DNA of 64,000 nt from a virus, in the IMG/VR virus record IMGVR_UViG_3300021400_001206, positions 11,782 to 75,781 of that record; one strand, 5' to 3'. Under the pieces are notes generated by a model. The model did no database searches. It saw nothing but the letters and a program-made list of their open reading frames with translations, and was not told the origin of the DNA. Within the stretch, counting starts at the first letter, position 1; every line of letters begins with the position of its first letter. Positions 1 to 64,000 of this stretch are shown piece by piece. The position numbers and the translations under genes were made by a program.

Positions 1-814
1 ACATAAAGTATATGTTATTTGTTTGGGAGACCCATTCCAGTTGCCACCTATTGATAAAGATGAAGATAATCATCTATTAGATAATCCTCATATCTTTCTT
101 GATGAAATTATGAGACAGGAAGAAGATTCTGAAATTATTCAGCTTACTATGAAAATTAGAAATCAAGAATCAATTGATTATTTTAATGGTAATGAAGTAA
201 AAATTATTCCTTATTCAGATTTAAATACTGGAGTGCTACAATGGGGAGACCAAGTTCTAACTGCAACAAATGCAAAGCGACGAGCAATTAATAACCAGAT
301 GCGCGCATTACAAGGAAGAACTGGAGAGCCTGTTGATGGAGATAAAATTATATGTCTCCGCAATTACTGGGATGATTCAAGTTTAAATGGTGATGCTCTA
401 ATTAATGGAACTATTGGTATTCTTCAAAATAGTTTTCGTACTTGGAGAGAAATTCCCAGATTTATACAAAGTGATATAAGAAAATTTGATGTTTTAGTTG
501 GCGATTTAGTTGTACCAGAAACTAATGATGTTTATGAAATGACAGAAATGGATCGTCAAATGATTATTACTGGAGAAAAATGTTGTGATTGGCGACTATC
601 TTATAAATTAGGTAAGTTGCGTTCTAAATATGGAGAAATTGTTCCTAAAGAGTTTACATACGCTTATGCTATTACAACTCACAAAAGTCAAGGTAGTGAA
701 TGGGATAAGGTAGTTGTTCTTGAAGAAAAGTTTCCGTTTGATAAAAATGAACATGCTCGATGGCTATACACAGCTTGCACGAGAGCCAGTGAAAAATTAG
801 TTTTAGTGAGGTAA
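1..814 (+). CDS. RecD/Dda-like superfamily 1 helicase, C-terminal part (gene continues off the left edge; frame is open to position 2)
   Basis: VYVICLGDPFQLPPI, TTHKSQGSEWDKVVV and TACTRASEKLVLV motifs are typical of RecD-like helicase C-terminal domains. The ORF is open upstream of the annotated 23 start. Confidence 0.75.
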   Translation, partial: HKVYVICLGDPFQLPPIDKDEDNHLLDNPHIFLDEIMRQEEDSEIIQLTMKIRNQESIDYFNGNEVKIIPYSDLNTGVLQWGDQVLTATNAKRRAINNQMRALQGRTGEPVDGDKIICLRNYWDDSSLNGDALINGTIGILQNSFRTWREIPRFIQSDIRKFDVLVGDLVVPETNDVYEMTEMDRQMIITGEKCCDWRLSYKLGKLRSKYGEIVPKEFTYAYAITTHKSQGSEWDKVVVLEEKFPFDKNEHARWLYTACTRASEKLVLVR

Positions 815-817
815 AAT

Positions 818-970
818 ATGTCTAAAAATAATATATTAACTTTTGCCACATCTTTTAGAGGAGATAATCTCACTAAAGAAGAAAAATGTGCTTTAGAGCA
901 TTTGCTTGAAATAATGGCAGCTGTGAAGCAACAAATTTTATTAAGAAAATTATTAATAAATAAAATTTAA
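818..970 (+). CDS. hypothetical small protein (50 aa)
   Basis: ATG preceded by GTGAGGTAAAAT RBS immediately after the helicase stop. Confidence 0.45.
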   Translation: MSKNNILTFATSFRGDNLTKEEKCALEHLLEIMAAVKQQILLRKLLINKI

Positions 971-1001
971 AATATAAAATTAGTATTAGTGAGGTAATAA
1001 T

Positions 1002-1340
1002 ATGACTACAGGTATATTTAATGCAAAAATAAAACGTGCTAATTTAATTAAAGATATAGATACGAATAAAATAGTCTTAAAATTAGAAATAAAATCAACA
1101 GCAGGAACTGCTTGTTTAACATTTTCTGTTGATGATTTAATTAAAATTTTTTCTATATTAGAAATTGAAAATTTTGATGAAATAATTGGTCAACCCTGTT
1201 TAGTATTAATTAATGATGGTATTATGAAAGATATTGGTAATTTTATGTTCCGTCATTATGATTTTATTAAAGAACCATTAAAAGAAGAATCAAAATATTG
1301 GGTACTTAATGATCCAATTAGATTAAAAATATATGAATAA
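1002..1340 (+). CDS. hypothetical protein (112 aa)
   Basis: ORF with RBS GTGAGGTAATAAT upstream. Confidence 0.5.
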   Translation: MTTGIFNAKIKRANLIKDIDTNKIVLKLEIKSTAGTACLTFSVDDLIKIFSILEIENFDEIIGQPCLVLINDGIMKDIGNFMFRHYDFIKEPLKEESKYWVLNDPIRLKIYE

Positions 1341-1516
1341 AAAATTTGACAAACTTAAAAATTTTTTATATAATATAATTGTAAGAAATAAATATTATGA
1401 AAGAGAGGTACGGTCCAATGGTTTAAATAGTTGTAACTCGTTAACATATTGAACCGATATAATATGGAGGGTACTCCAATGGACAGGATAGCTTAAATAT
1501 TTATTTTTATATGACT

Positions 1517-1550
1517 AGTCAAGCGGGGCAACTCGCTTGACTTTTTTATT
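1517..1550 (+). terminator. intrinsic terminator (hairpin AGTCAAGCG-gggcaact-CGCTTGACT plus T-run)
   Basis: Perfect 9-bp stem followed by TTTTTTATTTATTTATTTT. Confidence 0.6.
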
Positions 1551-1598
1551 TATTTATTTTATAATATAATTATATTATAATGTGAAAGAGGTAAAGTG

Positions 1599-4500: not shown

Positions 4501-5564
4501 AGATTATTGGCGGTCGCCCATACACTGGAATTATTGATTTTATGAATAGATGCCCGCTAAATAAAACTCAAATGATTTCATTAATTAAGTCAGGAGCTTT
4601 TGACAAGGTTGATAACAATTGGGCATCAGAAATTTGTAAAAAAAACCCAAGATATGCAATAATGGCATATTATATATCAATAGCTAGTGAACCAAAGAAA
4701 AAATTAACATTACAAAATTTTAATGGATTATTAAAAAATAAATTAATTCCAGAAGATTTACTTAAGCAACAACAAATTTTTATATTTAATAAATTTCTTA
4801 AAGAAAATAAAAAAGTTGGTAAATACTATGTTTTTGATGAAGGTTCTTTAAATTTTTATTCTTATTATTTTGACTTAAATGAATTAGATGTTATTAATGG
4901 AATCACTTGTATTCTTCAAAGTAAATGGGATAAAATTTATAAAAGAGAAATGGATGAAGTTAGAGATTGGTTAAAAGAAAATCAAGAAGAGATTTTAAAT
5001 CAATATAATAACTTATTGTTTAAAGAAACTTGGAATAAATATGCAACTGGAAATGTCTCTGCTTGGGAAATGGAAAGCTTATGTTTTTATTATCATGAAC
5101 ATGAATTACTTAATATTGATAATTATAAATATGGAATTGTAAACTTTTCATCTCTGCCAGAAGAACCAGTGGTTGATTATTTCTTTAAGAGGGGAGATAG
5201 AAAAATTCCAATCTTTAAATTATATAGAATTGCTGGAACAATTATTAGTAAAAATAATACTAAAGCATCTATTACAATTTTAACAACAGATGGAGTTGTA
5301 AATGTAAAATTTACAAAAGAATATTATGCTATGTTTAATCGTCAAATTTCTGAAAAGCAACCAGATGGTACTAAAAAAGTATTAGAAAAAGGTTGGTTTT
5401 CTCGTGGCACAAAAGTTTTAATCACAGGATTTAGACGAGAAGATACCTTTGTAGCAAAAACCTATAAAGCGACTCCTACTCATCAATTATATAGAATTAT
5501 TAATGTAAATAATAAAAAAATTACCTTAGAACATGAAAGGATAAACGCAAATGTAGAAAATTAA
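1599..5564 (+). CDS. dnaE: DNA polymerase III alpha subunit (DnaE-like, PHP domain N-terminus), 1321 aa, no in-frame TAG
   Basis: N-terminal PHP motifs HSHSEFS, LTDHE and GSDAHY. Size is typical of PolIII alpha. RBS AAAGAGGTAAAG. Confidence 0.8.
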   Translation: MVKRFEVHSHSEFSNIRLLDCINKIPALIDRAIEIGLSGIALTDHECLSGAPQANFYAQEILKTHPDFKVALGNEIYLTPDREMGQKYYHFILIAKNKTGFRALRELSSRAWMNSYWDRGLERVPTTYDELEEIVNKYPNSLIATTACLGGEVSSQLLNLIKAEKHDDKIETAEAHNDIVDFILWCKRLFGDDFYIECAPGQSNEQVMVNRRLKAVAAAFNCKMVLGSDAHYLKKEDRYVHKAYLNSKGGEREVDAFYEYAYLQDENDIKENILPSELNYDELVFNSYEIYNKIKNYDIRHQQTIPKVKVKDYRPYYFDSKLRSFDKQDQAKEFSEKYPTLVSLYESDNIYHRYWINECVQKLHQIDEFNDVYLSRLEEEADIKKTISEKLGTNMFSYPITLQHYVDLFWECGSTVGAGRGSSCSGLNHYLLGITQLDPIKWDLPFWRYLNKERVELGDIDLDLCPSKRPLILQKIKEERGQNFNKDIDDLSRKNLGCTLIATFGTEGTKSAVLTACRGYRSEDFPDGIDVDTAQFLSSLIPSERGFLWPLKDVVYGNKDKDRKPIAPFISEINLYPGLLDIAMAIEGLINKRSSHASGVILFDEDPYEFGCFMKTPKGEIITQWDLHKCEACGMTKYDFLVTEVQDKIVQTIKLLQENNKIDKDLSLREVYDKYLHPEVLPLEDKRIWKALQNNSVLNVFQFDSDVGSQAAKKIKPTNILEMADANGLMRLMTSEKGEETPMEKYIRYKNNISLWYQEMNRAGLTKEEQTFIEPYFKQSYGVPPSQEQLMKMLMDKNICNFSLKEANAARKIVGKKQMAKIPELHQKILDTASSSSLGKYVWKCGVGPQMGYSFSIIHALAYSFIGVQTIYLATNWNPIYWNTACLIINSASLEDNDEDDDEDNTKDKSTDYSKLAKAIGDITSKGIKVSLIDINKSGYSFEPDEENNEILFGLKGVNKIGGPVIDKIIGGRPYTGIIDFMNRCPLNKTQMISLIKSGAFDKVDNNWASEICKKNPRYAIMAYYISIASEPKKKLTLQNFNGLLKNKLIPEDLLKQQQIFIFNKFLKENKKVGKYYVFDEGSLNFYSYYFDLNELDVINGITCILQSKWDKIYKREMDEVRDWLKENQEEILNQYNNLLFKETWNKYATGNVSAWEMESLCFYYHEHELLNIDNYKYGIVNFSSLPEEPVVDYFFKRGDRKIPIFKLYRIAGTIISKNNTKASITILTTDGVVNVKFTKEYYAMFNRQISEKQPDGTKKVLEKGWFSRGTKVLITGFRREDTFVAKTYKATPTHQLYRIINVNNKKITLEHERINANVEN

Positions 5565-6126
5565 AGTTCTTGCGCTTTTTGGAGAGTCTGGTGCTGGGAA
5601 AGATACTATCCAGCACTGGCTCGAATGGTACTTAAAAGATGCCGTACATGGAATAGTATCTTATACAACAAGACCGCGACGTAGCTATGAAGTTGAAGGT
5701 CGTGATTATTATTTTATATCAGAAGATAAATTTTTTAATTAGATGGAAAACAATAAAATACTCGAATTCACTTGTTTTAATGGTTGGTTCTATGGCACCT
5801 CTGTTAATGAATTAAAAAAAGATAAAATTAATATAGGAGTTTTTAATCCTCAAGGTGTTCGAAGTTTATTAGCTCATTCAGATATTATAGAAGTTCTTCC
5901 AGTTTGGATTAAAGCAAATGAAAAACAAAGACTTTTACGTTCTTTAAAAAGAGAAATTTGTCCAGACTGTGCAGAAATTTGCCGTCGGTTTTTAGCAGAT
6001 CAAAAGGATTTCCAAGGAATTAATTTTGAATATGAATTCTTTTTAAATGATACAGATACAGACTATTGGACAGACTTTTTTAATAGACCAAAAATTGCAG
6101 CTTTTTTAAAGGACAAAAATGATTAA
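5551..6126 (+). CDS. guanylate kinase-like (d)NMP kinase, read through two in-frame TAG codons (5554, 5740)
   Basis: P-loop LFGESGAGKDT plus SYTTRPRRSYEVEGRDYYF guanylate-kinase signature. Start ATG-TAG overlaps the dnaE stop. The track ORF 5743-6126 is the C-terminal part in the same frame. Confidence 0.65.
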
Positions 6127-6194: not shown

Positions 6195-8504
6195 ATGATT
6201 TATATAATCAAAAGAGATGGTAGACAAATGCCATTTGACACACAAAAAATTAAAAATGCAATTTTAAAATCTTTTAAAGCAGTAGATGGATAGATTTCTG
6301 AATATGCTGAAACAAAAGCATAGAATATAGCAAACTACATTGAAGGCTATTGTGAAGAAGAAACTCATCCATTGTCTATTGAAGAAATTCAAGATTTAGT
6401 AGAAAACGGATTAATGTCTACTAAAAGAAAAGATGTAGCAAAAGCGTACATTAAATATCGTGAAGAAAGAACAAGAGAAAGAAATTGGAATAATAAAATG
6501 ATGCGGGCGGCGCAAGAAAAACTTGCAGGTTCTAAAATTGATAATCAAAACGCCAATGTTGATGAACATTCATTTGGCGGGCGCCGCGGCGAGTTTGATT
6601 CAATTATTTCCAAACAATATGCTCTTGATAATTGCATGTCAAAAATGGCTAGAGAAAACCATCTAAATAATGAAATTTATATTCATGATTTAGATGCATA
6701 TGCAGTTGGTATGCATAATTGTCTATCAGTGCCTTTTGATGATTTATTAGCAAAAGGATTTAATACTCGTCAAACAGACGTAAGACCAGCAAATTCAATT
6801 AATACAGCTTTTCAACTTGTTGCGGTAATATTCCAACTACAAAGCTTACAACAATTTGGAGGTGTATCAGCAACTCACTTAGATTGGACAATGGTTCCAT
6901 ATGTACGAAAAAGTTTTTGGAAACATTATTGTGATGGTCTAAAATATGTTGCAAGATGGGATCAAGAATCTATTAATAGTGAAAAAAATAGTAGAATCAA
7001 TTTTTTAGATTTCCCTATTAATGATACTGATTTTTATGAAGTGCAAAGCGCTTATTTATATGCGATGGATATGACTGAACGTGAACTTCAACAAGCGGTT
7101 GAAGGTATGTACCATAATCTTAATACATTACAAAGTAGAAGTGGTAATCAATTGCCCTTTACTTCAATTAATTATGGAACTTGTACTCTTCCAGAAGGAA
7201 GAATGGTTATTAAAGCTTTACTTGAGGGTAGCATAAAAGGAAATGGTAAATTTCATAAAACATCAATTTTCCCTTGTGGAATCTTTCAAGTAATGAAAGG
7301 TGTTAATAAAGAACCAGGGACTCCAAATTACGATTTATATAGATTAGCTCTTAAATCAACAGCAAAAAGATTATATCCAAATTATGCTAATGTTGATTGG
7401 AGCGGCAATGCTGGTTATGATATAAATGATCCAACTACTTATTTTTCAACAATGGGATGTCGTACAGCAAATGGAGCAGATATAAACGCAGAACCAGGAG
7501 TAAATCCACAGCGTAAAGATGGGCGCGGTAATATTTGTCCTGTAACAATTATTCTTCCCACTCTTGCTAAAAAGGCAGAAGATACTTTTGCTGTACATAA
7601 TTATACAAAAAATAAAACAACATTTGATAAAATTGAAATTTTTATGAATATTCTTGACCAAAAAATTGATGAAGCAAAAGATATGCTTCTTGAAAGATTT
7701 GAATATATCTGTTCTCAATCGCCTGAATCCGCGAAGTTTATGTGGGAAAATAATACTATGTTAGGTTATAAACCTGAAGAAGGAATTAGATCCGCACTTA
7801 AACATGGCACATTAGCTCTTGGTCAGCTTGGCTTAGCAGAAACTCTTCAAATTCTTATAGGTAAAGATCATACAACAGAAGAAGGTATGAAATTGGCTAA
7901 AGAAATTGAACAGTTATTTAAAGATAGATGTGCTGAATTTAAACAAAAATATCATTTAAATTTTGGTGTTTATATGACTCCTGCTGAGAATCTTTGCTAT
8001 ACCGCAATGAAAAAATTTAAAGACAAGTATGGAGAAATCCCAAATGTAAGTGATAAAGAATTTTTCACAAATTCTATTCATGTTCCTGTTTGGAAAGAAA
8101 TTGACCCATTTACAAAAATTGATATTGAAAGTCAATTAACTGGATATAGTTCTGCTGGTTGCATCACATACGTAGAATTAGATAGTGGTATTTTACATAA
8201 TATTGATGCACTTGAACAAATTGTTAATTATGCTATGGATAAAGATATTCCTTATTTTGCTTTAAATGTTCCAAATGATTTATGTTTAAATTGCGGATAC
8301 ACTGGAGAAATTAATAATGAATGTCCAATGTGTGGAGGAACAAATATTTAGAGATTACGTAGAGTTACAGGATATTTAACAGGAGATTATAAGACAGCCT
8401 TTAATCTTGGAAAACAACAGGAAACAGAAATGAGATTTAAACATTCATCCTTATTAAGAGGACAACGTCGTTATATGGGAGCAATGGAAGATTATGTGTG
8501 TTAA
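6195..8504 (+). CDS. nrdD: anaerobic ribonucleoside-triphosphate reductase NrdD (class III), read through 3 in-frame TAGs (6291, 6321, 8349)
   Basis: N-terminal ATP-cone (IIKRDGRQMPFDTQKIKNAI). The glycyl-radical motif RVTGYL lies only downstream of the TAG at 8349. RBS TAGGAGGATAT. Confidence 0.85.
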
Positions 8505-9054
8505 AAAATCAGCTCTCGCAGGAATCTTAATTGGATTGGGGGTTATTATTAACCTTCAATCTTCAGTTCCTGCTTTAGGAGCTTTATTATTTAGTTTTGG
8601 ACTTTTAACAATAATTAATATGCAATTAAATTTATTTACTGGAAAAATTGGTTTCTATTCTAAAGCAACATTAGAATAGCAAAAAACTTTAGCTACAATA
8701 TTATTATTTAATTGCATTGCAATAGCAGCTACAATAGGTTTTTATGCTTTAGGAAATCCAGATTTTGTTAATATTATATCTGCGGCTGGCGCAACTAAAT
8801 TTGCTAAAAGCGCATTAACTTTATTTGTAAATGCTAGTTTCTGTGGAATGTTAATTCATTTTGCTGTAAAAAATAAAGTAACTATATTAACAATTTTTGC
8901 AATTATGATTTTTATTCTTATTGGAGCAGAGCATTGTATAGCAGATTTTCCTTATCTGTTATTCAATTTGTCTTTAATAAATATTTTTAAATTTATGGCT
9001 ATTGTTCTTGGTAATTCACTAGGAGCAATATTAATTGAGGAGTTAAGTAAATAA
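8494..9054 (+). CDS. small membrane protein with FNT (formate/nitrite transporter)-like motifs, read through TAG at 8680
   Basis: NLFTGK and GAEHCIADF resemble the FNT signatures ELFTGN and EHSIANM. Track ORFs 8494-8679 and 8848-9054 are in the same frame. Hydrophobic. Confidence 0.45.
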
Positions 9055-10231: not shown

Positions 10232-10477
10232 ATGTCAAAATATTTAGTAAGTACAGTAGAAACATATAGAGTTGATACAGAAGCAGAAGCAACAAAAGCA
10301 ATAGAAGAAGCAAAAAATGATAACGCATATGTTCTTGGTAAATATACAAGCGAACATAAAACTCGCAAAGCAAAAGGTGAAATTGTTGATGAATATTGGA
10401 AGTTATCTTTAACAAAATTGTTCAATGATATTAAGGAACCTGAGTCTATTGTTAATATTGATTACGAGGTAGAATAA
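10232..10477 (+). CDS. hypothetical protein (81 aa)
   Basis: ORF with AAGGAGATAAT RBS. Stop overlaps the dut start (TAATG). Confidence 0.5.
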   Translation: MSKYLVSTVETYRVDTEAEATKAIEEAKNDNAYVLGKYTSEHKTRKAKGEIVDEYWKLSLTKLFNDIKEPESIVNIDYEVE

Positions 10478-10926
10478 TGGAATATTGGGTAGATGTAAAA
10501 GTAAAAAAACTTAATGATTTAGCTAAGTTTCCAACAAGAGGAAGCGAACATGCGGCAGGATATGATTTGTATGCGGCAACCGATGGGCCTGTTTATATTT
10601 TGCCTCATTCCACAATGAAGATTGGAACAGGTCTTTCTTTTTAGATCCCAGACTGGACTTTTGCAGCGATTTTTGCTAGATCAGGCATTGCTGCAAAACA
10701 AGGTCTTCGTCCTGCAAATTGTGTAGGCATATGCGATAGTGACTATCGTGGATAGTATATTGTAGCTATTCATAATGATACAGATGAGGTTCAAACTATT
10801 GTGTCTCAATAGCGAATTGCTCAGATGATTCTTCTTCCTTATATTGAAATGAATTTTTATGAAACAGATAATTTATCTGAGACAGAGCGTGGAGACGGCG
10901 GATTTGGCTCAACTGGTAAACAATAA
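10477..10926 (+). CDS. dut: dUTP diphosphatase (dUTPase), read through 3 in-frame TAGs
   Basis: Motifs GSEHAAGYDL, RSG, VGICDSDYRG-(TAG)-Y, RIAQMI and RGDGGFGSTG. The TAG after DSDYRG aligns with Gln of E. coli DSDYQGQ. Confidence 0.85.
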
Positions 10927-12599: not shown

Positions 12600-12665
12600 C
12601 TCCTATTTAACAAAAAACAGGGAGAGTAAAATTATACTCTCCCTATAAAATTTTTAATGTTTCAA
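12600..12665. terminator. strong hairpin terminator (AGGGAGAGTAtaatttTACTCTCCCT) flanked by A/T runs
   Basis: Perfect 10-bp stem directly downstream of the 12674-13683 gene. Confidence 0.6.
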
Positions 12666-12673
12666 AGTTAGCC

Positions 12674-13683
12674 TTACGGCGCATCTCCTTCTACACCATC
12701 TTCATTGTCTGGACCGTCAACAGAATCACCATATCTAGTAACTTGTCCATCAGCTTCAGTTCTAGGAATAGATTCTTCAATATTAAATCCTGTTGGATGT
12801 GGGAATAATGGTTTAGCTTCATATTTAGCTTCAGTAGCGTCATCAACAACCTGAATAGCACATAAAACTTTATTTGTTTTATTAAAATATGTATATCCAG
12901 GGAACGCGTCCATGGTAAAAGTAAACGTACTTGGATCACCAGTTGAAGCCATAGAGAATGTAAAGTTAGACTGAATCTTAACATTAGGGAATGTAAGATT
13001 TGCAGGTAAGTCTTTACCATCTGACTGACGTCTAAATAATGTATCAGCTTCTACATAATAGTATCCACCAAAGTGTTCTGCATCGATTTGAAGTTCGGAA
13101 ACAGTTCCTTCTTTCTTTAATACATAATAGTCAACCATAATAGCGCCTTCTAATCCACTAACTTTACTATGAGTTAATTTCTTACCAGCACTATCAACAG
13201 TCCATCCTGTAAGAACTTCTCCAGTTAAATCTCCATAAGCATCAAGTTTCATAATATAAATAGGAGCAGTCGGACAAATTTTTTCTGTAGATTCTAAAGC
13301 TTCTGTTAAATCAATTTCAAGTCCTCCACCCTGAGCCGTTTCAATTACTGCATTAGTAGTTTGATGGAAATGAATTGTTTTTTCAGAATCTGCCGCACCT
13401 TTTATAATACCAGCACCAGAAAGCATAGCAAAACTTACTGGTGAAAGAAGAGCATCTTCAACAGTAAATGTTAAAGTTTTTTCACCTTCCCAAGCGATTA
13501 AACGAGTATTACCACGACCACCTGTTGCATATACTGTAGTAGCCGCTCCTTCCATAGAAGAAGTTTTTGCAGAATCAAGATAAAAAACTGGTTGTCCTTT
13601 TGCGAAAATTTGGCTACCAATTCTTTGTTGATTCTTAGCCTTAAATACTACGTTAGCAATTTCACGTACACCAAATTTCATTT
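12674..13683 (-). CDS. abundant structural protein (336 aa, no TAG) with dedicated terminator
   Basis: Strong RBS TAAGGAGGAAATCC. The only large late ORF without TAGs and it has its own terminator, suggesting high expression. Identity (tube-like or other major structural protein) not resolved. Confidence 0.45.
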
Positions 13684-13694
13684 GGATTTCCTCC

Positions 13695-15075
13695 TTATAT
13701 TTTGTACAAAATATCATTATCCTAATCGTTAGACTAATTGTTATTATGAATATCTTTTAACCAATCTTCAGGGTCATCCATACCGGTACATCCGCCTGCC
13801 TTAAATCTCTACCAAGAGTCATAACGCATTTTTAATTCAAATCGGTTAAATTCATCCATTAATTGATAAATAGTATAATTCATTAAATCATTCATATCTT
13901 TTCTTTCGCCAACAGCAAGAATAGAGATATAACGACTTAATACTGACATCTTAGAATCTGGCGCCAGCTCCGCCTTTTTCTGTCTGCCTTTTTTTATTTT
14001 ATCAGCAATTTTTTTTGCTAACTATCCACTTGGATTATACTATTTATTTTCTTTATTTGTTAGGCAAAATATATTAGTGATAATTCCTTTAAAAATTTCA
14101 AAATTATTTTCATTAATTTCATTAACTTCGCCAGTCTAATTATCACGTAATTGTATTGCCTTTTTTCCCAACAAAATTTCTTTTGTTGGGAATAATAATG
14201 CAAGAATAGATAAAACATTTAATCTAGCCTAATGAGCCTATAAATTTTTTTCTTGTATTATCATCATTATTATATTAAAATTTGACATATTTGATAAATC
14301 AACTTTGTCCTAAGTTGCTAAATTTTCTTTATTAAATTTTAATATTTCGCATCCAAACCAAAAACGCTATTCAGTAATATAAGCTATTTCTTTCAGTCGC
14401 GGCTGATGAATTATTAACTGAGCCTATGGAAAAGGAATATCATTACCAGATAATAATAATAATTCATCAATCATTCTTTGAAATCCACCCATGCGCGCTT
14501 GGTAGAACGTCATCTGTTCCATGAATCGCTGAATATGTTAAAGTGTAACCAGATAAAGTCTCATCTAAAACTAATTCATTACAACCCGCAAACTGAAAGG
14601 TGCCTATTCCAGATAAACGTGCTTTGTTAAGAATTCCATCAATATAACCCGCAATTTTTAAAGGTCTAATTCTAAAATTTCCTAAATCCCAATAGTCAGT
14701 ATGACAAAGAATATCAATATGAACACTACAATCTCTAAACTCAGGATTTGTAATATTTGGTCTAAAATTATCAAAACTAATTAATAAATAACTTTTAACC
14801 TATTCATGTTCAGGCATTTTTATCTTAGGCTCAAATTTTATATAACCTTGCTATCTTAATTTAGCTAAACTCATATCTTTAATAGCATTTTGATAAACTG
14901 TGCTTGTTTTATTATCTAAACAATCTTTTGTATTTATTACTAACAATCTTTTTAATTCATCACTATAAGGCTGACTAGTAACAAAAAGTCTTTTTAAAAT
15001 TTCTTCTAAATCTTTCTAGCATGATAAAAAAGATGAAGTAAAATCAACAGGTCTTAAAGCTAAATCTCTCTTCAT
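13695..15075 (-). CDS. structural (baseplate/tail-like) protein, ~460 aa with ~13-14 in-frame TAGs
   Basis: Continuous frame only if TAG is sense. RBS AAAAGGAGTAGATAAAAT. Stop overlaps the RBS of the next gene. Confidence 0.4.
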
Positions 15076-16425: not shown

Positions 16426-18768
16426 TTAAGTATTTGAATTAACTGTTAAATTATAAATAAATTGGATTCCAACTACTCCATTTGTAATACTAGAATCAAT
16501 CTGGGAATTTTTTACTACGGAAACATTTATCCCTAATGGAGTTCCTGTATAAGTAAAAGTATAACCTGAATCTCCCTGCGAAACACTCTCTACTAAATAT
16601 CCATTAGATTTTCTAACTTTTAATTCAGTGCAAGTAACACTAATATCACTCTATCTATTGCTAGCTCCAATAAAAGGAATTGTAAAGAAAACACCTTTTC
16701 CATCACGAGTTACGATACCGCCCCCAAACCATGTTTGATTATTATAGATACCTGCATGAGGATATAAAAAATTAGACTGGGTTTGAGTAATAGCATCAAT
16801 TTTTATTTTATCACTACTAGACAATAGTCCATCTGCTGAATGAGTCGCTAATCCAATATTTTCAGGACCAGATCTATTAGAATTTGAAAAAGTAATTGAA
16901 AAAGTAGTATTAGAATTATTTCTTCCAACAATTATTTTATTATTATAAATTGCTAAACACTAAACAACCCAATTTTTATATGCCCCTTTACTTAAATCTA
17001 TTTCTGCAATTTTTTCTTTTGAAACTAAAGATTGCACCATAAGATAATTTGGAGATGTCGCTCCACCATGACCAAATATCATATAAATTTTTCCATCTTT
17101 AAAACGACATCCTTGTTGATAATTCTAATCATACTTAGTCTTCCATTGATTGTCAACATCTTCCCAACCTAAAGTTACTGAAGAATTTGATAAACTAGGT
17201 CGATAAAATTTTGTTATTATGTGCTCATTATTAAACTTTGCAGCTCCATCAGGATAAGGAACTGCGCGTGAAACATGCCCGATAGTATACAAATATCCAT
17301 TGTAGCTATGAAATTGGACCCAAGGAAAACCCCAATGTATCCCACTAGTAGTAAGACTATTAGCATCAATATTAATAGTTTGAACTAATGTTGATGAAAA
17401 AGTATTACCAGATCTTTGAATTCGTTCGACAAAGCACTATCCATGATTCGCATCTCCCGCTGTTACATATAATAAAGGAAAAGGATCATTTGCATCATAA
17501 AATTCATCTGAAAAACACAAACAATCAGCATGGTTTGTTGTGCTATCGCCTGTATAGCTTCCTAAATTGAAATAACTAATAGCATTTAAAGAAGTCGCAC
17601 TTGTATTTAGGTCATAAACTGCACATTGTCCACCGACTACCGTTCTAAACATTAAATTACCATATATTTCCATTCCTTGCCAGCCATGAGTTCCAAAAGC
17701 TGAAGGTTTTACCGTAGTTTTATAATCTTCTATATAACAAATTGGCTACTATAAAGAATTTAAAGTAATATGTTCTCCTGCATATTGGTATTTTGTCCCA
17801 CTATACTCAAGAGGCTCTTTGTAGCCAAGTTCTTCTGGTGATAAAGTCCAATCTGTTGCGATAGTACCATATTCAAGTTTAAAATTTTTAATCTTAAAAA
17901 TAGCACCAGATGTAGCTGATTTTAAAACTATTCTAATAGAACTATCCTAAACATAAGCAGCTTGTTCAGCAGTTACTTTAATAGTTTCTTTATATTTTCC
18001 CTAAGTAGTATTTCCAATAACTTTTTGAATACTCTAAGATGTATTATATCTATTTCCAACAGTAAGTAAAGAACCTTGACTTCCATTTATCTAAGGATAA
18101 ATATAAGCATCAACATTAGAATTTCCTGTTAAAGTATAATTAAAAGAAATTGTAAAAATTTCATCAGTAATATGAAAAACTCTTTTATCAATAGCATAAG
18201 CAGTTAAATTTAAATAAGGAGAATATTCTGTACTTGACGCTACTAAACAAGTAAAAGGTGCTGCAGTATCATCAATTAAATTACGTCCCCCTACATCTAA
18301 AGTATCAGATAATTGTTTATCTCTTTGTGACATTAAACCATCTGAACTTTGAGTTGCTAATCCAGTGTCTAAATAATTTCCAATTAATTGCCAGTATGAT
18401 CCATCATAAACAAAATCTAAAGTACCATATAATAAGTTTTTATTTGAAGCTGAAGCTATTAACGCTCCATTATGTTGTATTCTTTTTGCTCCTGTTGAAT
18501 TTACATTTAAAGTTGGCGAATTTGCAGTATTTTTATTTGTAAATTTTACAGTAACTTTTGCCCCTCGATCAAGAGTAAAAGTCCCTGAATCAATACTAAC
18601 TGTTTTTGCGGCAGTACTGGCGCCAGTACTACATATTCCAAACCTAATAATAGTCGCGCCAGTAATTCCGTCTTGTTTTATTGTTTGGTGGGTTTTTAAA
18701 GCATTACTATCCTATATTTGATATATATTCCCACCATACTCTATCTTATCTATAATATGTGTTGCCAT
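16426..18768 (-). CDS. tail fiber/tailspike protein 3 (~780 aa, ~8 TAGs)
   Basis: N-terminus MATHIIDKIEYGGNIYQ resembles the shared fiber anchor. Beta-rich Ser/Thr/Gly/Asn composition. Track ORFs 17437-17673 and 18091-18333 are fragments. Confidence 0.5.
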
Positions 18769-24155: not shown

Positions 24156-25217
24156 TTATACACCATAATAAGGATTTAACGCTTCATTCTTATAGATACA
24201 AATACCTGGATGTACTAAATAAGTAGCTACACCAAATTTTTGATAAGTCTGAATTTCTGTTGACCAATCACGATTATCAAAAGATTTAACCTGTGCAGAA
24301 CCTTCAAAAGCAACTTTTACAGGTTTTTCTGAACCAGTCGGAATGATATAAGCAAGCTGAGGATTAATAACTTTATTAATTTTAGTAGCTGTCATACCTA
24401 CATTATCTTCAATAGACTGCGGAAGAATAATTACTCTATGTCCTTTATAAGTAGCAAAATATCCATTGTTCCAGATTTCTTCTTTCATTCCATCTGACCA
24501 ATTATCACTCGAAGCTGGAAGCATTTTTGAAGCAAATTCAAATGTACAATAAATTGTACTCTTTCCGCCATAGCTGTCAGCAAGTGCTAATAATGTATCC
24601 ATCTTGGCTTCGTCGAAACCAGTATTAACTACCTTTTGAAGTGCAGGAATACTATTGATTAAAGCTTCAAGAGCTTTTGCGATTTCTTTATAAACCTGTT
24701 CATCCATTCCTTCAAGAACAAGACTATAATAATCATTCATTGTCATACGTCCATCAAGAAGTTCTTCCCATTCTACACGAGAAGCTCCGCCGTATGCAGC
24801 TGTAGCAACTTCGAATGAATATCCATCAAGCTTGAAGACTTCATATCTACCTGCTAAACCGACTCTAGTCACGAACTGTTTAGCACGCTTTCTTGAAGCC
24901 TCACTAATCTTAACCTTATAAACAGGCTTTGTTCCTTGTGCAAAAGTACGAACATCAGCAAACTGTCCATAAGATTGCATAATCTTTTGCGGAAGAACTT
25001 CCGTAAGACTAACCTACATTAATGTGTAAATAAGATTTTTATTTTCTCTAAAATCTTGAGGAGTTGCCCCAAGTTCATTTAATTCCTTAATAAAAGTTTT
25101 ATTCAGAGCTTCAGCAGAAAGTTTTTCTCCACCAAAAGAAAAAGTTGAAGAAGGATTTAATGAAGCTTTCGCATTGGCTCTAGCTAATTCAATTAATTGA
25201 TCTTTTTGTAATGCCAT
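24156..25217 (-). CDS. putative major capsid protein (~353 aa, 1 TAG joining track ORFs 25014-25217 and 24156-24980)
   Basis: Size and position (after scaffold-like protein) are typical of HK97-fold capsid proteins. The two track ORFs are co-frame across a TAG. Confidence 0.45.
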
Positions 25218-25238: not shown

Positions 25239-25799
25239 TTACTGCACTCTCTGAATTTTAACACCAGGCTGTCCATCTGGCATTGTATATTCTTTAACAA
25301 CCTTCCAAACCATTCCAGATGCAGGCATACTAGCTCCAGTAGCTTTAGTTAAGAAACCAGTAGTACCAGGTTGTAAATAATTTCCAACTGAAAGTTCTAC
25401 TGTACCAACTTCAGCAGTATCAGAAGTATTTGCAACTGCAATTGTATTAGTTGTCATAATATCACCAACATAAGTTCTGATTAAACGAGGGAATATTCTT
25501 CCATCGGTAAAATCCTCTGTTTTATATACAAAATCCTTATGATGTTGCTTTCTTTCATCATAAAGCTTTTCTTCATTATAAACAAGCATGAACTCGCCTT
25601 CACCGTCAAAATTTACTTCACCAGCCGCATAATCATACTTAGCAAACTGTCCTTGTTCAAGCTGAGTAATAGAATCTGCTCCAGTGTCTCCAACCTTCAC
25701 ATGTGCCGGTAACTGAGCGTAGATTTGACCGGTAACAATACCAGAAAGGTGATTAGGTTCAACCTGTCCATATCCTTTTCTCTTCATTGTAAGTGCCAT
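25239..25799 (-). CDS. hypothetical head protein (186 aa, no TAG), possible decoration/minor capsid protein
   Basis: Complete ORF between scaffold-like and capsid genes. Confidence 0.35.
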   Translation of the reverse strand: MALTMKRKGYGQVEPNHLSGIVTGQIYAQLPAHVKVGDTGADSITQLEQGQFAKYDYAAGEVNFDGEGEFMLVYNEEKLYDERKQHHKDFVYKTEDFTDGRIFPRLIRTYVGDIMTTNTIAVANTSDTAEVGTVELSVGNYLQPGTTGFLTKATGASMPASGMVWKVVKEYTMPDGQPGVKIQRVQ

Positions 25800-28821: not shown

Positions 28822-28853
28822 TCGATTTATCAACTTTAGATACCTCTCCTTCT

Positions 28854-33589: not shown

Positions 33590-33612
33590 TCTAGTATAAG
33601 AGATTATTTTAT

Positions 33613-36699: not shown

Positions 36700-37260
36700 A
36701 GTTTTGAAAATGAGCGCGGCATGCAAGCGTCCGCTGGATAGACGCTTGCATGCCGGTTTGGCACTTTAACGCGTTAAAGCGTTATACTTTAGCGCGGTGA
36801 AGCGTGACACTGTAACGCGGTGAAGTCCCGATTTGCCCTTGATTTCAGCGCTTCACCGCGCTAAAGCGTTAACGCGTTACCACTGCACTGCGTTAAAGTG
36901 TAGCACTTCACCGCGGTGAAGTGATGAAATCGGGGGCAAAATTGTTTTTGGCTGTTTTTCGTGCGGCGTCGCGGTGACACTTCACCGCGTTAAAGCACGA
37001 CACTTCAATGCGTTAAAGCACGACACTCCACTACGGTGAAGTGCTAAAGAAGCCAGCACTTCACCGCGTTAAAGTGCTAAAGAAGCCAACACTTCAGCGC
37101 GTTGAAGTGCTAACACATCATCACTTTAACACGTTGAAGTGTAACGATGTAAAGTGATACAACATTAATACATTAATATGTTAATACATTAATACATTAA
37201 TGTGTTAATAAGATAACACTTTAATGCGTTAAAGTGATAAAGAACTAAAGTAAAAAAAAT
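36700..37260. repeat. iteron-like repeat array: long hairpin, ~15 degenerate CACTTCACCGCGTTAAAGYG / CGCGGTGAAG units in both orientations, then TTAATACA AT-rich tandem repeats
   Basis: Hairpin GGCATGCAAGCGTC-cgctggata-GACGCTTGCATGCC at ~36717-36753. AACGCGTT and CCGCGG palindromes. GC-rich island in an AT-rich context. AT-rich TTAATACATTAATATGTTAATACATTAATACATTAATGTGTTAATAAG at ~37170-37215. Confidence 0.7.
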
Positions 37261-46406: not shown

Positions 46407-46481
46407 GGGGGTGTAGCTCAGTAGGTTTAGAGCACACGACTTTTAATCGTGGTGTCGAGGGTTCGAATCCCTTCACCCCCA
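46407..46481 (+). tRNA. tRNA-Lys (anticodon UUU; loop CUUUUAA)
   Basis: Cloverleaf: acceptor GGGGGTG/CACCCCC, D-arm GCTC-AGTAGGTTTA-GAGC, anticodon stem CACGA/TCGTG, T-arm GAGGG-TTCGAAT-CCCTT, discriminator A. No encoded CCA. Confidence 0.7.
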
Positions 46482-46696
46482 CTCAGAATCTAATATTCGT
46501 TTTCCTTTCTTTTGGTGCGGGGGTTGTCGTAGATGGCAACCCCCTTTTGGCGTCGCGCGATGGGTCGCCGTGCGACGCCATTGTCAATATGTAATGTTGC
46601 ACAAATTTTTGATCCGCATTTTGTATAAAATTACTTATTGACTTTTTTCCTAATTTTTTGTATAATTATATCATCAACAGAAAGGAAATAAACGAT

Positions 46697-58000: not shown

Positions 58001-58745
58001 TTAATCATTCCACCAGGCGGTTAGGTCAACATTACTGCCTTTACAATAACAATAGCTTCCAACTCTTGAAATCTTAAAAATTTCACTTTCTTGTAACATT
58101 TTAATAGCATCTCTTATCTGATAATTAGATAGCCCTGTTAATTCTTCAATATCTTTATTAGTAAAAGGTTGATGTTCAAAACAAATTTGAACAGCTAACC
58201 AAACTTTTATCAACTGAGAAACTTTATCTGCGGTTTTATTATGTTTTTTCACAATTTCGCGGCATTGCTTTATCATTTTAGAACCAAGTTTCATTTCTTC
58301 TTCAATCTTTTCTCTAATATATATAATTATATGGCTACCATCCTCATGAAAAGCAATATATTCTTTATCAACTAAACCAAAAAACGCCTTCTCCAACAAT
58401 TCTAAATTCTTTTTATTCTTCTTAACATCTATATATTTAAGAAACTCTTCTCTAGTCCCTCTAAAAACACCCCACGGTGTCATTACCACTCCAAGAAAAA
58501 CTATAAACTAAAAATTCTCAAATTTTAAAACCTTTTTACCAATCTTTATCTTCCTCTCTTCACCTTCATTATAAATAGTATTGGCACGGCCGTCAGTTAT
58601 CTAATAAGTAACATTTCCACTACCATCTTTTTTTCTAGTCAAAATAATATTATATTTCTTCTGAATGGATGCGGCAGTTCTATTAAAATTACTCATGATA
58701 CTACTTTCAGAAAAACCAAATCTTAAACTTATATCTTCAACTGTC
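58001..58745 (-). CDS. putative DNA-binding regulator (~248 aa, 2 TAGs): N-terminal HTH-like segment plus C-terminal winged-helix-like LTGLSNYQIRDAIKML
   Basis: The track ORF 58001-58489 extends co-frame upstream through two TAGs to MTVEDISLRFGFSESSIMSNF at 58745. Confidence 0.4.
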
Positions 58746-59028
58746 ATATAAAATATTTAGTGTATTAATTTAATTTACACTACTCCTTTCAAATAAAATA
58801 AAAATTATTAAAAAAGAGTTATCTATTTTAGGCCATTTTACCCAACAAACATCATTTTTTACCTCTAACAAACGTAGATTTTTACCCAAAATTTTTACCT
58901 ATCAAAATACGGCAGTCCCGTTAAAAAGATCCGCCAGTCTAGTCCGCCGCATCTTCACAATAAAACTGCACCTAAATCGGATTCAGAAACTTTCCATTTT
59001 CAATATCCCCAGCCTTATTCATTGCTTC

Positions 59029-59295
59029 CTAAATATAAGAAATACACCTTTTTAAATGTTCTTTAGCCTCGTTTGCATTTTCAACAGAAAAAAGGCTAAC
59101 TTTATCAACCATAAAAAGCACAGATACATTTTTATCATCTAAAAAATTTTTTACTGTATTAAATATATCTAAATACTCATCGAGACTTAAATAAGGCAAC
59201 CCCGCATCATCAGTCTTTATATAAAAAATTAATACATCACCAGCCGCCGCATTCATCTTTTCTACTCTTGAAAAAATATCATCATAATTAATCAT
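59029..59295 (-). CDS. hypothetical protein (~88 aa)
   Basis: ATG at 59295 (MINYDDIFSRVEKMNAAAG). The track ORF start at 59397 overlaps the upstream gene. Confidence 0.4.
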   Translation of the reverse strand: MINYDDIFSRVEKMNAAAGDVLIFYIKTDDAGLPYLSLDEYLDIFNTVKNFLDDKNVSVLFMVDKVSLFSVENANEAKEHLKRCISYI

Positions 59296-59479
59296 TATAA
59301 ATATCATCATCTCCATGGTCTGTATAATCTTTTTCACCTTCATTAAGTGTTTCATCATCCATCCATTTCTTTTGGAACATTTTTTCCAAATCATCAAGTG
59401 CTTTTGCGGAGGTCTCGTTAACGATGCCCTTGTAACCCGGTATTTTCTTCATTAGTCTTCTTCTTTGCGCTCTATTCAT
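59288..59479 (-). CDS. hypothetical basic/acidic small protein (63 aa)
   Basis: Complete ORF. Confidence 0.4.
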   Translation of the reverse strand: MNRAQRRRLMKKIPGYKGIVNETSAKALDDLEKMFQKKWMDDETLNEGEKDYTDHGDDDIYND

Positions 59480-60876: not shown

Positions 60877-60879
60877 CAA

Positions 60880-62066: not shown

Positions 62067-62067
62067 A

Positions 62068-62394
62068 ATGAGTGATAAAATGTATGTGAGAACTATGATA
62101 CTTGAGCAGGCGATTAAACATGCCGAAGAAGTAGCAAACGACTATGAAGAAATGACGCACGATTATACTTTGGATTCAGAAAAACTGGCGAAGTGTGCAG
62201 CCGAACACAGACTACTTGCTGCATGGCTCCGTGAGTTGCAGGAGCGCAGGAAGGCACCGGAAATTATTAGGTGTAAAGAATGTAAACTTAACAAGACGCC
62301 TCTTTGCGCTATGTCATTTCAGCAAGAGTGCGAGTGGAATGAGGATGATGATTATTGCTCTTGGGCGGAAAGGAGCATTGATGCTGACAATTGA
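62068..62394 (+). CDS. hypothetical Cys-motif protein (108 aa), tandem paralog of 62380-62701
   Basis: LRELQERRK...CKECK versus LRELIERRK...CEGCK in the next gene. Confidence 0.45.
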   Translation: MSDKMYVRTMILEQAIKHAEEVANDYEEMTHDYTLDSEKLAKCAAEHRLLAAWLRELQERRKAPEIIRCKECKLNKTPLCAMSFQQECEWNEDDDYCSWAERSIDADN

Positions 62395-62701
62395 GGAATT
62401 AATTACATATGAAACAGCAAAAGCAAAAGAATGCAAAGCGCAAGCTGATTTCGGATGGGATTGTTTTACGCATAAGAAATTATCTTTTTTAGAACAAGAG
62501 AGAAATGCATTTTATGCCAAGCAGCATAATCAGATAGCTGAATTACTACGTGAGCTTATCGAACGTAGAAAAATTGATAGTTGTGAGGGGTGTAAGCATA
62601 TTAGTTTATGGGAAAATGAATATGAGAATGGGTTAAGTTGTCCTTGCTTAAGATGCGCCAGAAGGGCGGAGGATAACTACGAACCAGAAAGGGAAAAATA
62701 A
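62380..62701 (+). CDS. hypothetical Cys-motif protein (107 aa)
   Basis: ATG 62380 after GGAAAGGAGCATTG. The track ORF 62195 start is probably too far upstream. Confidence 0.4.
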
Positions 62702-62923
62702 TGTTTAATTCAGAAGTTTTAGCAGATTGTGGCTTGTTTTTTATAGCTGCATTAGGATTCGTAATTATTACAGGTGTAGCTGGTTTAGCTTTATCAATTG
62801 GAGATGAAGATTCTATGGCGCCTTCCGCCTGGCTTGTTGGATGTTTAATGTACGCTATAACTGTAGTATATATGTGGCAGAGATAAATGAAAGGAAATAT
62901 ACAGTAAAAGGAGAGGATAAGAA

Positions 62924-63124
62924 ATGGATAAATATGGCATAAAAATCATAATGGTATCGACATGGAGTGATGGCTTTGATCGTATAGCAAATAAGCTTTG
63001 TGCAAAGGCCGTAGAACAAGGTTACCGATTTAATTCGGCAAGTCCACTGGACGTAACACAAAACCCTGATGGTAAGAAGATATTTTCACAGACGTTCATT
63101 CTTGAAAAAGGAGAAAAGAAATGA
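62924..63124 (+). CDS. hypothetical protein (66 aa)
   Basis: RBS AAAAGGAGAGGATAAGAA. Confidence 0.45.
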   Translation: MDKYGIKIIMVSTWSDGFDRIANKLCAKAVEQGYRFNSASPLDVTQNPDGKKIFSQTFILEKGEKK

Positions 63125-63567
63125 AATTTTTACATGAATATTTAAAATCTCCTAATGGGACAATTTTACAGGACGCCTATTGGGAGATAAGAGGCAACCG
63201 CTTATATAATGCTGCTGGCGGTTTTCATTTTTATGAGCCAAAAGAAGATGATGAAATTATAGAGTCAACGTGGGATAAAATTCTTTATGAAGCAGCACTT
63301 AAAAAGCTTGATTCTTCAAAAATAACAGGTTGGATTGCGCCTGATGGAACTTTTTATGGATGCGATCCTACTGATCATTGGGAAGTCGCTGAAAGAATTC
63401 TTAATTGTAGTGAACGAGAATTAGAAGAACGTGGATATTGTAAAATTTATCGTAATCCAATTTGGCATATGACAGATGAGTCAGAATATTCATATTATTA
63501 TGAAAAGCATTTAACAGAAGCTCAAATTGATGTTCTTACTTCTAAGGGGCTTGAAATAACACATTAA
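63121..63567 (+). CDS. hypothetical protein (148 aa)
   Basis: Overlapping start ATGA. Confidence 0.5.
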   Translation: MKFLHEYLKSPNGTILQDAYWEIRGNRLYNAAGGFHFYEPKEDDEIIESTWDKILYEAALKKLDSSKITGWIAPDGTFYGCDPTDHWEVAERILNCSERELEERGYCKIYRNPIWHMTDESEYSYYYEKHLTEAQIDVLTSKGLEITH

Positions 63568-63891
63568 TGATAAATATAAAATAGAGATAAGGAGAAAAAA
63601 TTTGTTAATACTTAATATAATGATTGGGGCGCTGTGTGGATGGCTAATAGGGGAAAGCGCTATAGAAGCTGAATATGCTTATACAATAGTTGGCATTTTA
63701 ATTCTCATTGTACATATTATAGAATTGTGTTATTATTATTCATTATGATGAAGATTTTTATAATATTAATAATTTTTATTTTTATATGTGCCCCATTGTT
63801 TATTGATATGTAAAGCTGCGGATTGCAGCTTTATTTTTTTAAAAATTTTTGATATAATATATACATAATAAAGGAAAGGAAAAGAAAAGAC

Positions 63892-64000
63892 ATGGAAAAA
63901 TTCTTTGTGGCTGATTCTTATAAGAATATGGAAGTTATCGGTGAGCCGTTCGAGAATGAAAAAGGTAAAATGGTTATCAAAGTAAAAGAGCCGTGCGACC
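63892..64000 (+). CDS. hypothetical protein, 5' part (continues off the right edge)
   Basis: MEKFFVADSYKNMEVIGEPF... after terminator GCTGCGGATTGCAGC+T-run and promoter-like TTTTTAAAAATTTTTGATATAAT. Confidence 0.4.
   Translation, partial: MEKFFVADSYKNMEVIGEPFENEKGKMVIKVKEPCD

Follow-up and report, generated by a model that had tools for sequence, protein, structure and literature searches.

Codon Comparison and a Glutamate-Type tRNA(CUA) Indicate That TAG Is Read as Glutamate in a Large Phage

The DNA analysed here, 64,000 nt of the IMG/VR virus record IMGVR_UViG_3300021400_001206 (positions 11,782 to 75,781; in the following called the window), is part of an SPbeta-like or 'Agate'-like phage genome of about 135-145 kb in which TAG is a sense codon. 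By comparison of its codons with those of related phages, TAG is a codon for glutamate. It is very likely that TAG encodes glutamate in this phage, with TAA and TGA as the stops, that the phage supplies its own glutamate-type tRNA with the anticodon CUA, tRNA(CUA), as suppressor, and that its early genes are free of TAG. The preliminary description of the window, made from the sequence alone, had recognized TAG as a sense codon and had assigned it to glutamine. The assignment to glutamine was not upheld, since codon substitutions, compensation within the large terminase TerL and tRNA identity features all indicated glutamate.

The window has a G+C content of 32%. A 110,397-bp metagenomic contig (ENA ERZ1756080 NODE_862) was 100% identical to it in two overlapping loci (10880/10880 and 11340/11340 bases), which added 9 kb upstream and 9.6 kb downstream, so that 82.5 kb were analysed in total. 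All 118 genes called in the 82.5 kb terminate in TAA (100) or TGA (18). TAG occurs in frame 109 times. Retranslation with TAG as a sense codon, a check proposed in the preliminary description, increased the number of open reading frames (ORFs) of at least 300 amino acids from 4 under the standard code to 14, and domain matches became whole; reading TGA as sense, as a control, gave 5. It had also been stated that recoding would lose its basis if the standard code gave full-length alignments or if the flanks of the TAGs were out of frame with each other. The segments on either side of a TAG were always in frame and continued the same Pfam or PHROG model. Six genes matched their families from end to end only with TAG translated:

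5551-6126, plus strand: gmk, guanylate kinase; 2 TAGs (5554-5556, 5740-5742); Pfam Guanylate_kin, 2.8e-24
6195-8504, plus strand: nrdD, class III ribonucleotide reductase; 3 TAGs (6291-6293, 6321-6323, 8349-8351)
8494-9054, plus strand: FNT-family channel gene between nrdD and nrdG; 1 TAG (8677-8679); Pfam Form_Nir_trans, 3.3e-12
10477-10926, plus strand: dut, dUTPase; 3 TAGs (10642, 10753, 10810); Pfam dUTPase, 3.4e-27
27250-28860, minus strand: portal; 2 in-frame TAGs; PHROG 2739 portal, 4.8e-84
29275-31011, minus strand: TerL, large terminase; 11 in-frame TAGs; PHROG_2 terminase match

With TAG read, NrdD matched Pfam NRDD at 9e-147 over profile positions 2-562 of 562; the ATP-cone match (1-87 of 88) spans both N-terminal TAGs, and the Gly_radical domain lies past the third one. 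The TAG positions given earlier for NrdD (6291, 6321, 8349) and for Dut, directly after DSDYRG (10753-10755), were all exact, and in-frame TAGs were confirmed for the Gmk-like and FNT-like genes and for most late genes (19 of the 21 genes in the late operon). The earlier counts were too high. TerL has 11 TAGs instead of about 15. Next to TerL, most TAGs are found in 13695-14522 and 16426-18768, again 11 per gene, whereas 13-14 had been given for a baseplate-like gene.

We considered whether the TAGs are real stops, in fragmented pseudogenes, at assembly errors or with occasional regulated readthrough and mostly truncated products. Some public gene calls do break these genes at TAG (loci L088 and L089), and distinct PHROG families match the N- and C-terminal halves of TerL. 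This explanation is almost certainly wrong. Not one of the 118 genes terminates in TAG, single Pfam or PHROG models run across the TAGs with both flanks in frame, the same TAG positions recur across independent assemblies from several samples, the TAGs fall inside catalytic domains of essential genes, and a tRNA(CUA) gene is dedicated to them. In this phage TAG is read as sense, and the stops are TAA and TGA.

For the identity of the amino acid, late proteins with TAG written as X were aligned to 80 related contigs (portal-centred, L001-L080), and the codons of the relatives were read. Opposite 74 aligned TAG positions we found GAA 1259 times, GAG 370 times, TAG 366 times, CAA 183 times and CAG 39 times. 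When each of the 70 TAG columns with enough codons was counted once, the majority was glutamate in 49 and glutamine in 7. The window's own GAA/GAG codons lay in glutamate-majority columns in 82% of cases and its CAA/CAG codons in 6%; if TAG behaved as the window's glutamine codons, the probability of at least 49 glutamate-majority columns among 70 would be 1e-43. The log-likelihood of TAG identity was -129 for glutamate, -204 for glutamine and -207 for aspartate, and aspartate, pyrrolysine and other residues were ruled out by likelihood. TAG columns that were at least 90% conserved in the relatives were glutamate in 12 of 12 cases. In alignments with 85% identity or more, in which most changes are synonymous, TAG stood opposite GAA (222), GAG (58), TAG (171) and CAA (4). 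The reciprocal view gave the same picture: in columns where relatives carry TAG, the window has glutamate 183 times and glutamine 30 times. Scored singly, every TAG-bearing relative among L001-L037, plus L076, yielded glutamate. Among 56 TerL orthologues, the TAG count changed with the GAA/GAG count at a slope of -1.06 (r = -0.89) and with the CAA/CAG count at a slope of -0.27.

The phage phAss-1, published as a TAG->Gln phage on the basis of TerL alignments and tRNAscan-SE (PMC10607447), was used as a control. The same method, applied to 41.6 kb of phAss-1 and 13 IMG/VR relatives, found only CAA/CAG opposite TAG at close range, and 29 glutamine-majority columns versus 6 glutamate-majority columns. 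The method therefore separates glutamate from glutamine, and the two phage groups truly differ.

Code 15, in which TAG is read as glutamine as in crAss-like phages, Lak phages and phAss-1, is also used in public annotation, and all published phage TAG reassignments that we found are to glutamine. The public protein collection has Q at all three TAGs of this contig's NrdD, one of these codons (719) matches a conserved CAA in relatives, and E. coli Dut has glutamine at a Dut TAG. Glutamine is nevertheless highly unlikely. TAG does not match glutamine in the homologues (49 of 70 columns against 7), all conserved columns are glutamate, and close relatives have 280 GAA/GAG against 4 CAA. Furthermore, TAG trades one for one with GAA/GAG in TerL and stands at a putative catalytic glutamate there, the suppressor described below lacks the 1-72 pair, the G73 and the short D-loop of glutamine type, and the phAss-1 control returned glutamine where glutamine is right.

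Since many entries of the public collection already carry TAG as Q, its homologue columns for NrdD are misleading, and the NrdD and Dut columns were therefore read as codons at the DNA level. NrdD codon 43 had GAA/GAG in 9 cells and CAA/CAG in 3. In Dut, relatives had GAA/GAG in 11 of 13 cells at codon 56, in 8 of 12 non-TAG cells at codon 93 and in 9 of 13 at codon 112. The TAG after DSDYRG had been matched to E. coli Dut, which reads DSDYQGQ here, as an argument for glutamine. This agreement was a coincidence: only 1 of the 12 non-TAG cells of that column (codon 93) has Q, and the position is E in 3 of the 5 best solved dUTPases.

TerL codon 183 (30463-30465, in GGLME-TAG-CVLID) has GAA 34 times, GAG 18 times, TAG 7 times and TAT once in the relatives, which is glutamate in 52 of 53 non-TAG relatives. 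In a weak alignment with collinear motif order, hhalign placed this codon on the 'IDEC' motif of T4 gp17, making it a putative Walker-B/catalytic-carboxylate position. The T4 motif holds the catalytic carboxylate E256 (in the numbering used here), where glutamine would presumably abolish ATP hydrolysis. No sequence match for TerL, alone or as a profile, was found in the PDB. The probable major capsid gene showed a similar column, with GAA 44 times, GAG 7 times and TAG once at codon 68:

24156-25217, minus strand: probable major capsid gene; 1 TAG at codon 68 (25014-25016); PHROG 4088

As a separate observation on TerL, two PHROG families of 'unknown function', 15503 and 24618, matched its residues 16-233 and 350-575 and outscored the terminase family, which suggests that both were built from TAG-split fragments of recoded phages.

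ARAGORN and Rfam found a single tRNA gene in the window, in agreement with the earlier statement that no UAG-decoding tRNA is visible there:

46407-46482, plus strand: tRNA-Lys(UUU), 74.3 bits with Rfam; not UAG-decoding

The expectation that the suppressor is encoded elsewhere or by the host was borne out by a phage tRNA(CUA) gene on the same contig, 8.46 kb past the window end (L081:19342-19415, equivalent to window positions 72462-72535). Its sequence is CGCCCGATAGTGGAGTGGCTTAACACAGCGGTCTCTAAAACCGCGGATCCTGGGTTCGAATCCCAGTCGGGTGA plus CCA. The gene belongs to an array of 10 or more tRNA genes, with a sigma-70-family gene upstream of the array, and reached 62.8 bits with the general tRNA model of Rfam as an ordinary cloverleaf. 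ARAGORN labelled it 'tRNA-Pyl' because of the anticodon alone; pyrrolysine decoding was rejected in view of the ordinary cloverleaf and of TAG columns that are specifically glutamate. Homologous CUA tRNAs were present in 10 related loci (L091-L095 and L098-L102) with arrays of up to 24 tRNAs, and in L091, which of the relatives with a fuller array in the examined stretch (24 tRNAs) is the closest, a single tRNA has the anticodon CUA. Scanning the 80 portal-centred relatives for tRNAs gave no tRNA(CUA), since the array is in another part of the genome. Beside the suppressor, Rfam showed neither a theta or HDV-like ribozyme nor a member of any other family. No Pfam domain of a release factor (RF) or an aminoacyl-tRNA synthetase was detected among the proteins scanned (part of the 82.5-kb gene set) or in precomputed domain tables, and 10 unassigned proteins from near the tRNA array and from the early block had no Pfam domain of a release factor, aminoacyl-tRNA synthetase or tRNA-modification enzyme. 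Two further observations concern the arrays of relatives: L099, a TAG->Glu relative, has a tRNA with anticodon UUA beside its CUA tRNA array (14099-14173), and L102 has a tmRNA gene (14782-15059, tag ADNYTYQMAA) within its array.

Pairwise identity of whole tRNAs gave no isotype (about 70% to many tRNAs). We therefore parsed the acceptor stem, discriminator base, D-arm and variable loop of 11 phage tRNA-Glu, 9 phage tRNA-Gln and 12 suppressors:

phage tRNA-Glu (11): 1-72 pair G-C, G-U or C-G in 10/11; A73 in 10/11; D-arm 17-18 nt
phage tRNA-Gln (9): 1-72 pair A-U or U-A in 8/9; G73 in 8/9; D-arm 15-16 nt in 8/9
suppressors of the window clade (8 distinct): 1-72 pair C-G, G-C or G-U in 8/8; A73 in 7/8; D-arm 17 nt in 6/8
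suppressors of phAss-1 (3) and of L106: 1-72 pair A-U, U-A or mismatched; G73 in 4/4; D-arm 15-17 nt

With C1-G72, A73 and a 17-nt D-arm with long D-loop, the suppressor of the window phage resembles phage tRNA-Glu; the weak 1-72 pair, G73 and short D-loop of a glutamine-identity suppressor are not found in it. A naive-Bayes score for glutamate versus glutamine that omits the anticodon arm, and that made no error in leave-one-out tests, placed it on the glutamate side (+21.2) and the phAss-1 suppressors at -2, -6 and -23. In L092-L095 the suppressor gene lies about 130 nt beyond adjoining tRNA-Glu(UUC) and tRNA-Glu(CUC) genes. The anticodon loop of the suppressor, CUCUAAA, differs from the loop CUCUCAA of phage tRNA-Glu(CUC) only at position 36, and a change at this position probably gave rise to the suppressor from tRNA-Glu(CUC).

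The bacterial amidotransferase GatCAB turns Glu-tRNA(Gln) into Gln-tRNA(Gln) and recognizes the pair U1-A72; what makes it reject tRNA-Glu is the pair G1-C72 together with an additional base in the D-loop, U20B (PMC2811023). Since the suppressor has an acceptor end and a D-loop of glutamate type, it would keep its glutamate once charged by glutamyl-tRNA synthetase (GluRS). Hosts of the Bacilli type usually lack glutaminyl-tRNA synthetase (GlnRS), and their GluRS is relaxed at anticodon position 36; in Bacteroidota with GlnRS, CUA anticodons attract glutamine. Charging of the Bacilli type would make glutamate the easy outcome. Relatives in GTDB genomes occur mostly within metagenome-assembled genomes (MAGs) from rumen, rabbit or gut that are labelled Erysipelotrichaceae, Bacilli or Anaeroplasmatales, and this binning with rumen Erysipelotrichaceae and other Bacilli gives a weak hint to the host.

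Several observations weigh against a strict reading of TAG as glutamate. Glutamine-majority columns made up 10% of the TAG columns versus 1% of the GAA/GAG columns (P = 7e-6), and glutamate-majority columns made up 70% of the TAG columns versus 82% for GAA/GAG codons (P = 0.01), TAG sites being somewhat less conserved. NrdD codon 719 (at 8349) aligns with CAA in 18 of 25 non-TAG relatives and with GAA in 1; it is the sole TAG column that is strongly conserved as glutamine, and solved homologues have D, D and N at this position. The suppressor of L098, a member of the clade, was near neutral in the naive-Bayes score (+1.8), and the alignment of TerL to T4 gp17 was weak (hhalign probability 0.2, E = 0.29). 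Glutamate at TAG is a reading by comparison, and the examined sequence comprises 82.5 kb, so that a second suppressor, a phage aminoacyl-tRNA synthetase or an RF2 gene may lie elsewhere in the genome.

The glutamine excess would be explained by CAG->TAG transitions, which are conservative changes from glutamine to glutamate at tolerant sites. It also fits some ambiguous decoding, in which glutamylated tRNA(CUA) is partly amidated by GatCAB, or a second suppressor is present, and a mixture of glutamate and glutamine with glutamate predominating is inserted. NrdD codon 719, the lower conservation of TAG sites and the intermediate L098 suppressor can be counted for such a mixture as well. We consider it unlikely: the 24 tRNAs of L091 include no second CUA tRNA, the suppressor of the window phage bears both features by which GatCAB is kept off (C1-G72 and a long D-loop), and TAG occurs in strictly conserved glutamate columns.

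The in-frame TAGs are distributed very unevenly over the genome:

33670-56712, plus strand: early block; 44 small genes, 382 GAA/GAG codons, no credible in-frame TAG
replication module: 18 TAGs, 440 GAA/GAG codons; TAG is 3.9% of glutamate-type codons
10967-33529, minus strand: late virion and packaging operon (PHROG); 21 genes, 19 with TAG, 93 in-frame TAGs; in the 20 genes scored, 90 TAGs and 453 GAA/GAG codons, TAG share 16.6%

Five nominal TAGs of the early block precede a further in-frame ATG at which translation probably begins, and this leaves the block without a credible TAG. The ratio TAG/(TAG + GAA/GAG) was 0.166 for late genes and 0.013 nominally (0 real) for early genes (Fisher P = 6e-17). 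On the plus strand, 47 of the 54 sites within one mismatch of TTGACA-N16-18-TATAAT fall in the early block (34463-56194), each preceded by an A-rich tract and followed by a ribosome-binding site and an ATG, and these near-consensus promoters mark 33670-56712 as the host-transcribed early region. The region of the sigma-70 gene and the tRNA array was also almost free of TAG (2 TAGs, in 1 of 25 genes), and a consensus promoter lies upstream of the suppressor at 71184. The preliminary description had placed sense TAGs across early and late genes. This is correct for the late and the replication genes and does not apply to the promoter-dense early block; NrdD, Gmk and Dut, which had been taken as early genes, belong to the sparsely recoded replication module.

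If the host itself used a code with TAG as a sense codon, the phage would match its host rather than impose recoding. The relatives are binned with poorly known MAGs of rumen Bacilli, Erysipelotrichaceae and Anaeroplasmatales, and some relatives use TGA->Trp, which is also the code of some Mollicutes-like hosts. Still, a host code of this kind is very improbable. None of the 44 early genes uses TAG, either as a sense codon or as a stop, which is the mark of a phage whose infection begins under the standard code, and the phage carries its own suppressor. Among relatives at 60-72% TerL identity, the standard code, TGA->Trp and TAG->Gln are all in use, and such mixed codes among close relatives argue for switching at the level of the phage. 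A screen for alternative codes is not known to report a bacterial TAG->Glu code.

We infer from these features how the code would be put to use, including charging by host GluRS, evasion of GatCAB, timing and the identity of the host. Host RNA polymerase would transcribe the TAG-free early block from its dozens of consensus promoters, together with the nearly TAG-free region of the sigma-70 gene and the tRNA array, including tRNA(CUA). Host GluRS would charge tRNA(CUA) with glutamate, GatCAB would reject the product because it needs U1-A72 and a short D-loop, and glutamate would then be delivered at UAG in competition with RF1. Not before this stage would full translation be possible for the replication genes, with their few TAGs, and the late genes, with their many, among them the first late gene, which resembles a sigma factor, and the gene of the TerL ATPase with its putative catalytic glutamate.

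32393-33529, minus strand: sigma-factor-like first gene of the late operon; 5 TAGs; PHROG 5767 'sigma factor', 2.2e-45

The product of this gene has a Cys-rich C-terminus, and upstream of the gene lie a TTGACA-N17-TATAAT promoter without any mismatch and, as ribosome-binding site, AAAGGAG (about 33540-33595). Since it combines 5 TAGs with a promoter of the host type, translation may act as the gate for late transcription, and the regulator may be made only once the suppressor is present, by analogy with the model of Borges et al.

IMG/VR holds 193 relatives, and near-complete contigs have 133-144 kb. When IMG/VR was searched for exact matches of 44-45 nt to the two ends of the window, none came up. 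When each contig was scored singly, four codes were present within one family (at least 60% portal identity):

TAG->Glu: TAG-bearing contigs among L001-L037, plus L076
TAG->Gln-like: L073 (9 Q of 20)
TGA->Trp: L040-L043, L045, L064, L068, L070 and L074
standard code: remaining contigs of L001-L080

The portal of the window phage is 38% identical to that of phAss-1, 30% to those of Enterococcus 140-kb siphoviruses and 24% to those of SPbeta-like phages, and a megablast search with 17.6 kb against GenBank phage records gave no match. These two results exclude membership in the proposed genus Phassvirus; the window phage and phAss-1 are related at the level of a family lineage, not of a genus. 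Genomes of about 135 kb that encode NrdD/NrdG and a virion module of the SPbeta type are common to both. With phAss-1/Phassvirus, crAss-like and Lak phages, which read TAG as glutamine (PMC10607447), the window phage shares the stops TAA and TGA, in-frame TAGs that are concentrated in the genes for structure and for late functions, and a phage tRNA(CUA) in large tRNA sets; no phage aminoacyl-tRNA synthetase was found among the proteins scanned. The difference lies in the amino acid: TAG of phAss-1 exchanges with CAA/CAG and its 3 suppressors have a glutamine-type acceptor end with G73, whereas TAG of the window phage exchanges with GAA/GAG and its suppressor is of glutamate type.

The 'Agate' clade comprises large phages with mixed codes from cattle and pig samples and with predicted Firmicutes hosts (Borges et al., bioRxiv 10.1101/2021.08.26.457843). 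The window phage resembles this clade in genome size class, animal-gut or rumen source, binning of its relatives mostly with MAGs of the class Bacilli, mixed codes and the bias of recoding towards late genes. In the same study TAG mostly 'aligned best with glutamine', and glutamate was not mentioned. We found no phage TAG->Glu reassignment in the literature searched, in which phage TAG recoding is to glutamine and the only mention of glutamate is as a residue that occasionally aligns with TAG in Lak phages; among the tRNA-Sup isotypes of one survey (Gln, Trp, Ile and Tyr), glutamate is absent. Stop-codon recoding in phages is itself known.

Two other systems bear some likeness to the code of the window phage. 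In peritrich ciliates (NCBI table 30) TAA and TAG are both translated as glutamate, but this is a eukaryotic nuclear code with TGA as the sole stop, and in the window phage a virus-encoded tRNA imposes the change on part of the gene set. A code of the peritrich type was also excluded by TAA, which ends 100 of the 118 genes. Laboratory amber suppressors made from E. coli tRNA-Glu with a CUA anticodon combine a tRNA-Glu body with this anticodon, as does the suppressor of the window phage; in E. coli they are largely mischarged with glutamine by GlnRS. We infer that natural delivery of glutamate is easier in hosts without GlnRS, which use a non-discriminating GluRS and GatCAB, and that this condition applies to the host.

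The genes found are those of a large tailed phage. The plus strand carries genes for a DnaE-type polymerase, helicases, Gmk, NrdD, NrdG and Dut (Pfam) and a long stretch of small genes; TerL, portal and capsid are encoded in the 22.6-kb minus-strand virion and packaging operon (PHROG). Class III ribonucleotide reductase uses formate as its reductant, and the FNT channel encoded between nrdD and nrdG may therefore serve the phage to import or retain the co-substrate of its NrdD. In the part of the replication module that precedes the window (L087:5117-7789) lie a PARG-like gene (poly-ADP-ribose glycohydrolase family) and a gene for a DHH/DHHA1 phosphoesterase with 6 in-frame TAGs. The structural genes expected to be most highly expressed have few or no TAGs (12674-13717, 25239-25799 and the capsid gene, the last with 1). 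A 158-codon ORF with 3 TAGs (12607-13083, minus strand) overlaps in another frame the TAG-free gene for a 347-aa virion protein (12674-13717, PHROG 2729); its translation is of low complexity and implausible, and it is probably spurious. In-frame TAGs were also present in two genes outside the late operon:

58001-58747, minus strand: 2 in-frame TAGs
58921-59394, minus strand: 3 in-frame TAGs

Early promoters, for example those at 40660 and 45524, number roughly one per small gene. Often a GGGGG...CCCCC hairpin overlaps the -35 box and is followed by AAAGGAG and ATG. A promoter-like repeat on the minus strand, ATTATACCAC...TTTGTCAAG, is interspersed among the early promoters. The ORF-free region 36400-37250 contains dense direct repeats of 23-33 nt (consensus CACTTCACCGCGTTAAAG) and AT-rich repeats of 8/24 nt; it resembles an array of iterons and may serve as a replication origin or for the binding of a regulator. 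Duplicated segments of 106-275 nt with 71-84% identity lie 3.3-4.0 kb apart (38878-39152/42214-42488 and 38536-38822/42543-42829), and the early block grew by tandem duplication of promoter-gene cassettes.

Phage stop-codon recoding is at present treated as either TAG->Gln or TGA->Trp, and gene callers, the NCBI 'code 15 clade' and public protein sequences follow this scheme. With moderate confidence we propose that a clade of rumen and gut phages of about 135-145 kb, at least 38 IMG/VR contigs in addition to that of the window, uses TAG as glutamate, a reassignment undescribed for any virus or prokaryote, that a suppressor derived from tRNA-Glu evades GatCAB, and that databases mistranslate these phages. 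Since the family also holds members with the standard code, TGA->Trp and TAG->Gln, the meaning of the freed stop codon would have been chosen independently and differently within one lineage. If this is true, databases give the wrong amino acid for about 1.3% of the late-protein residues of a clade that is widespread in rumen and gut, probable catalytic glutamates among them, which affects structure prediction, the building of protein families and proteomic searches. A natural tRNA(CUA) that is predicted to accept glutamate is of interest for the engineering of codes, and one phage family with four codes is a setting in which code switching can be studied. The amino acid for a captured stop codon would also not be fixed by the codon but would depend on the tRNA body and on the charging pathways of the host, with the predicted rule that TAG becomes glutamine where GlnRS reads CUA and glutamate where Gln-tRNA is made via GluRS and GatCAB.

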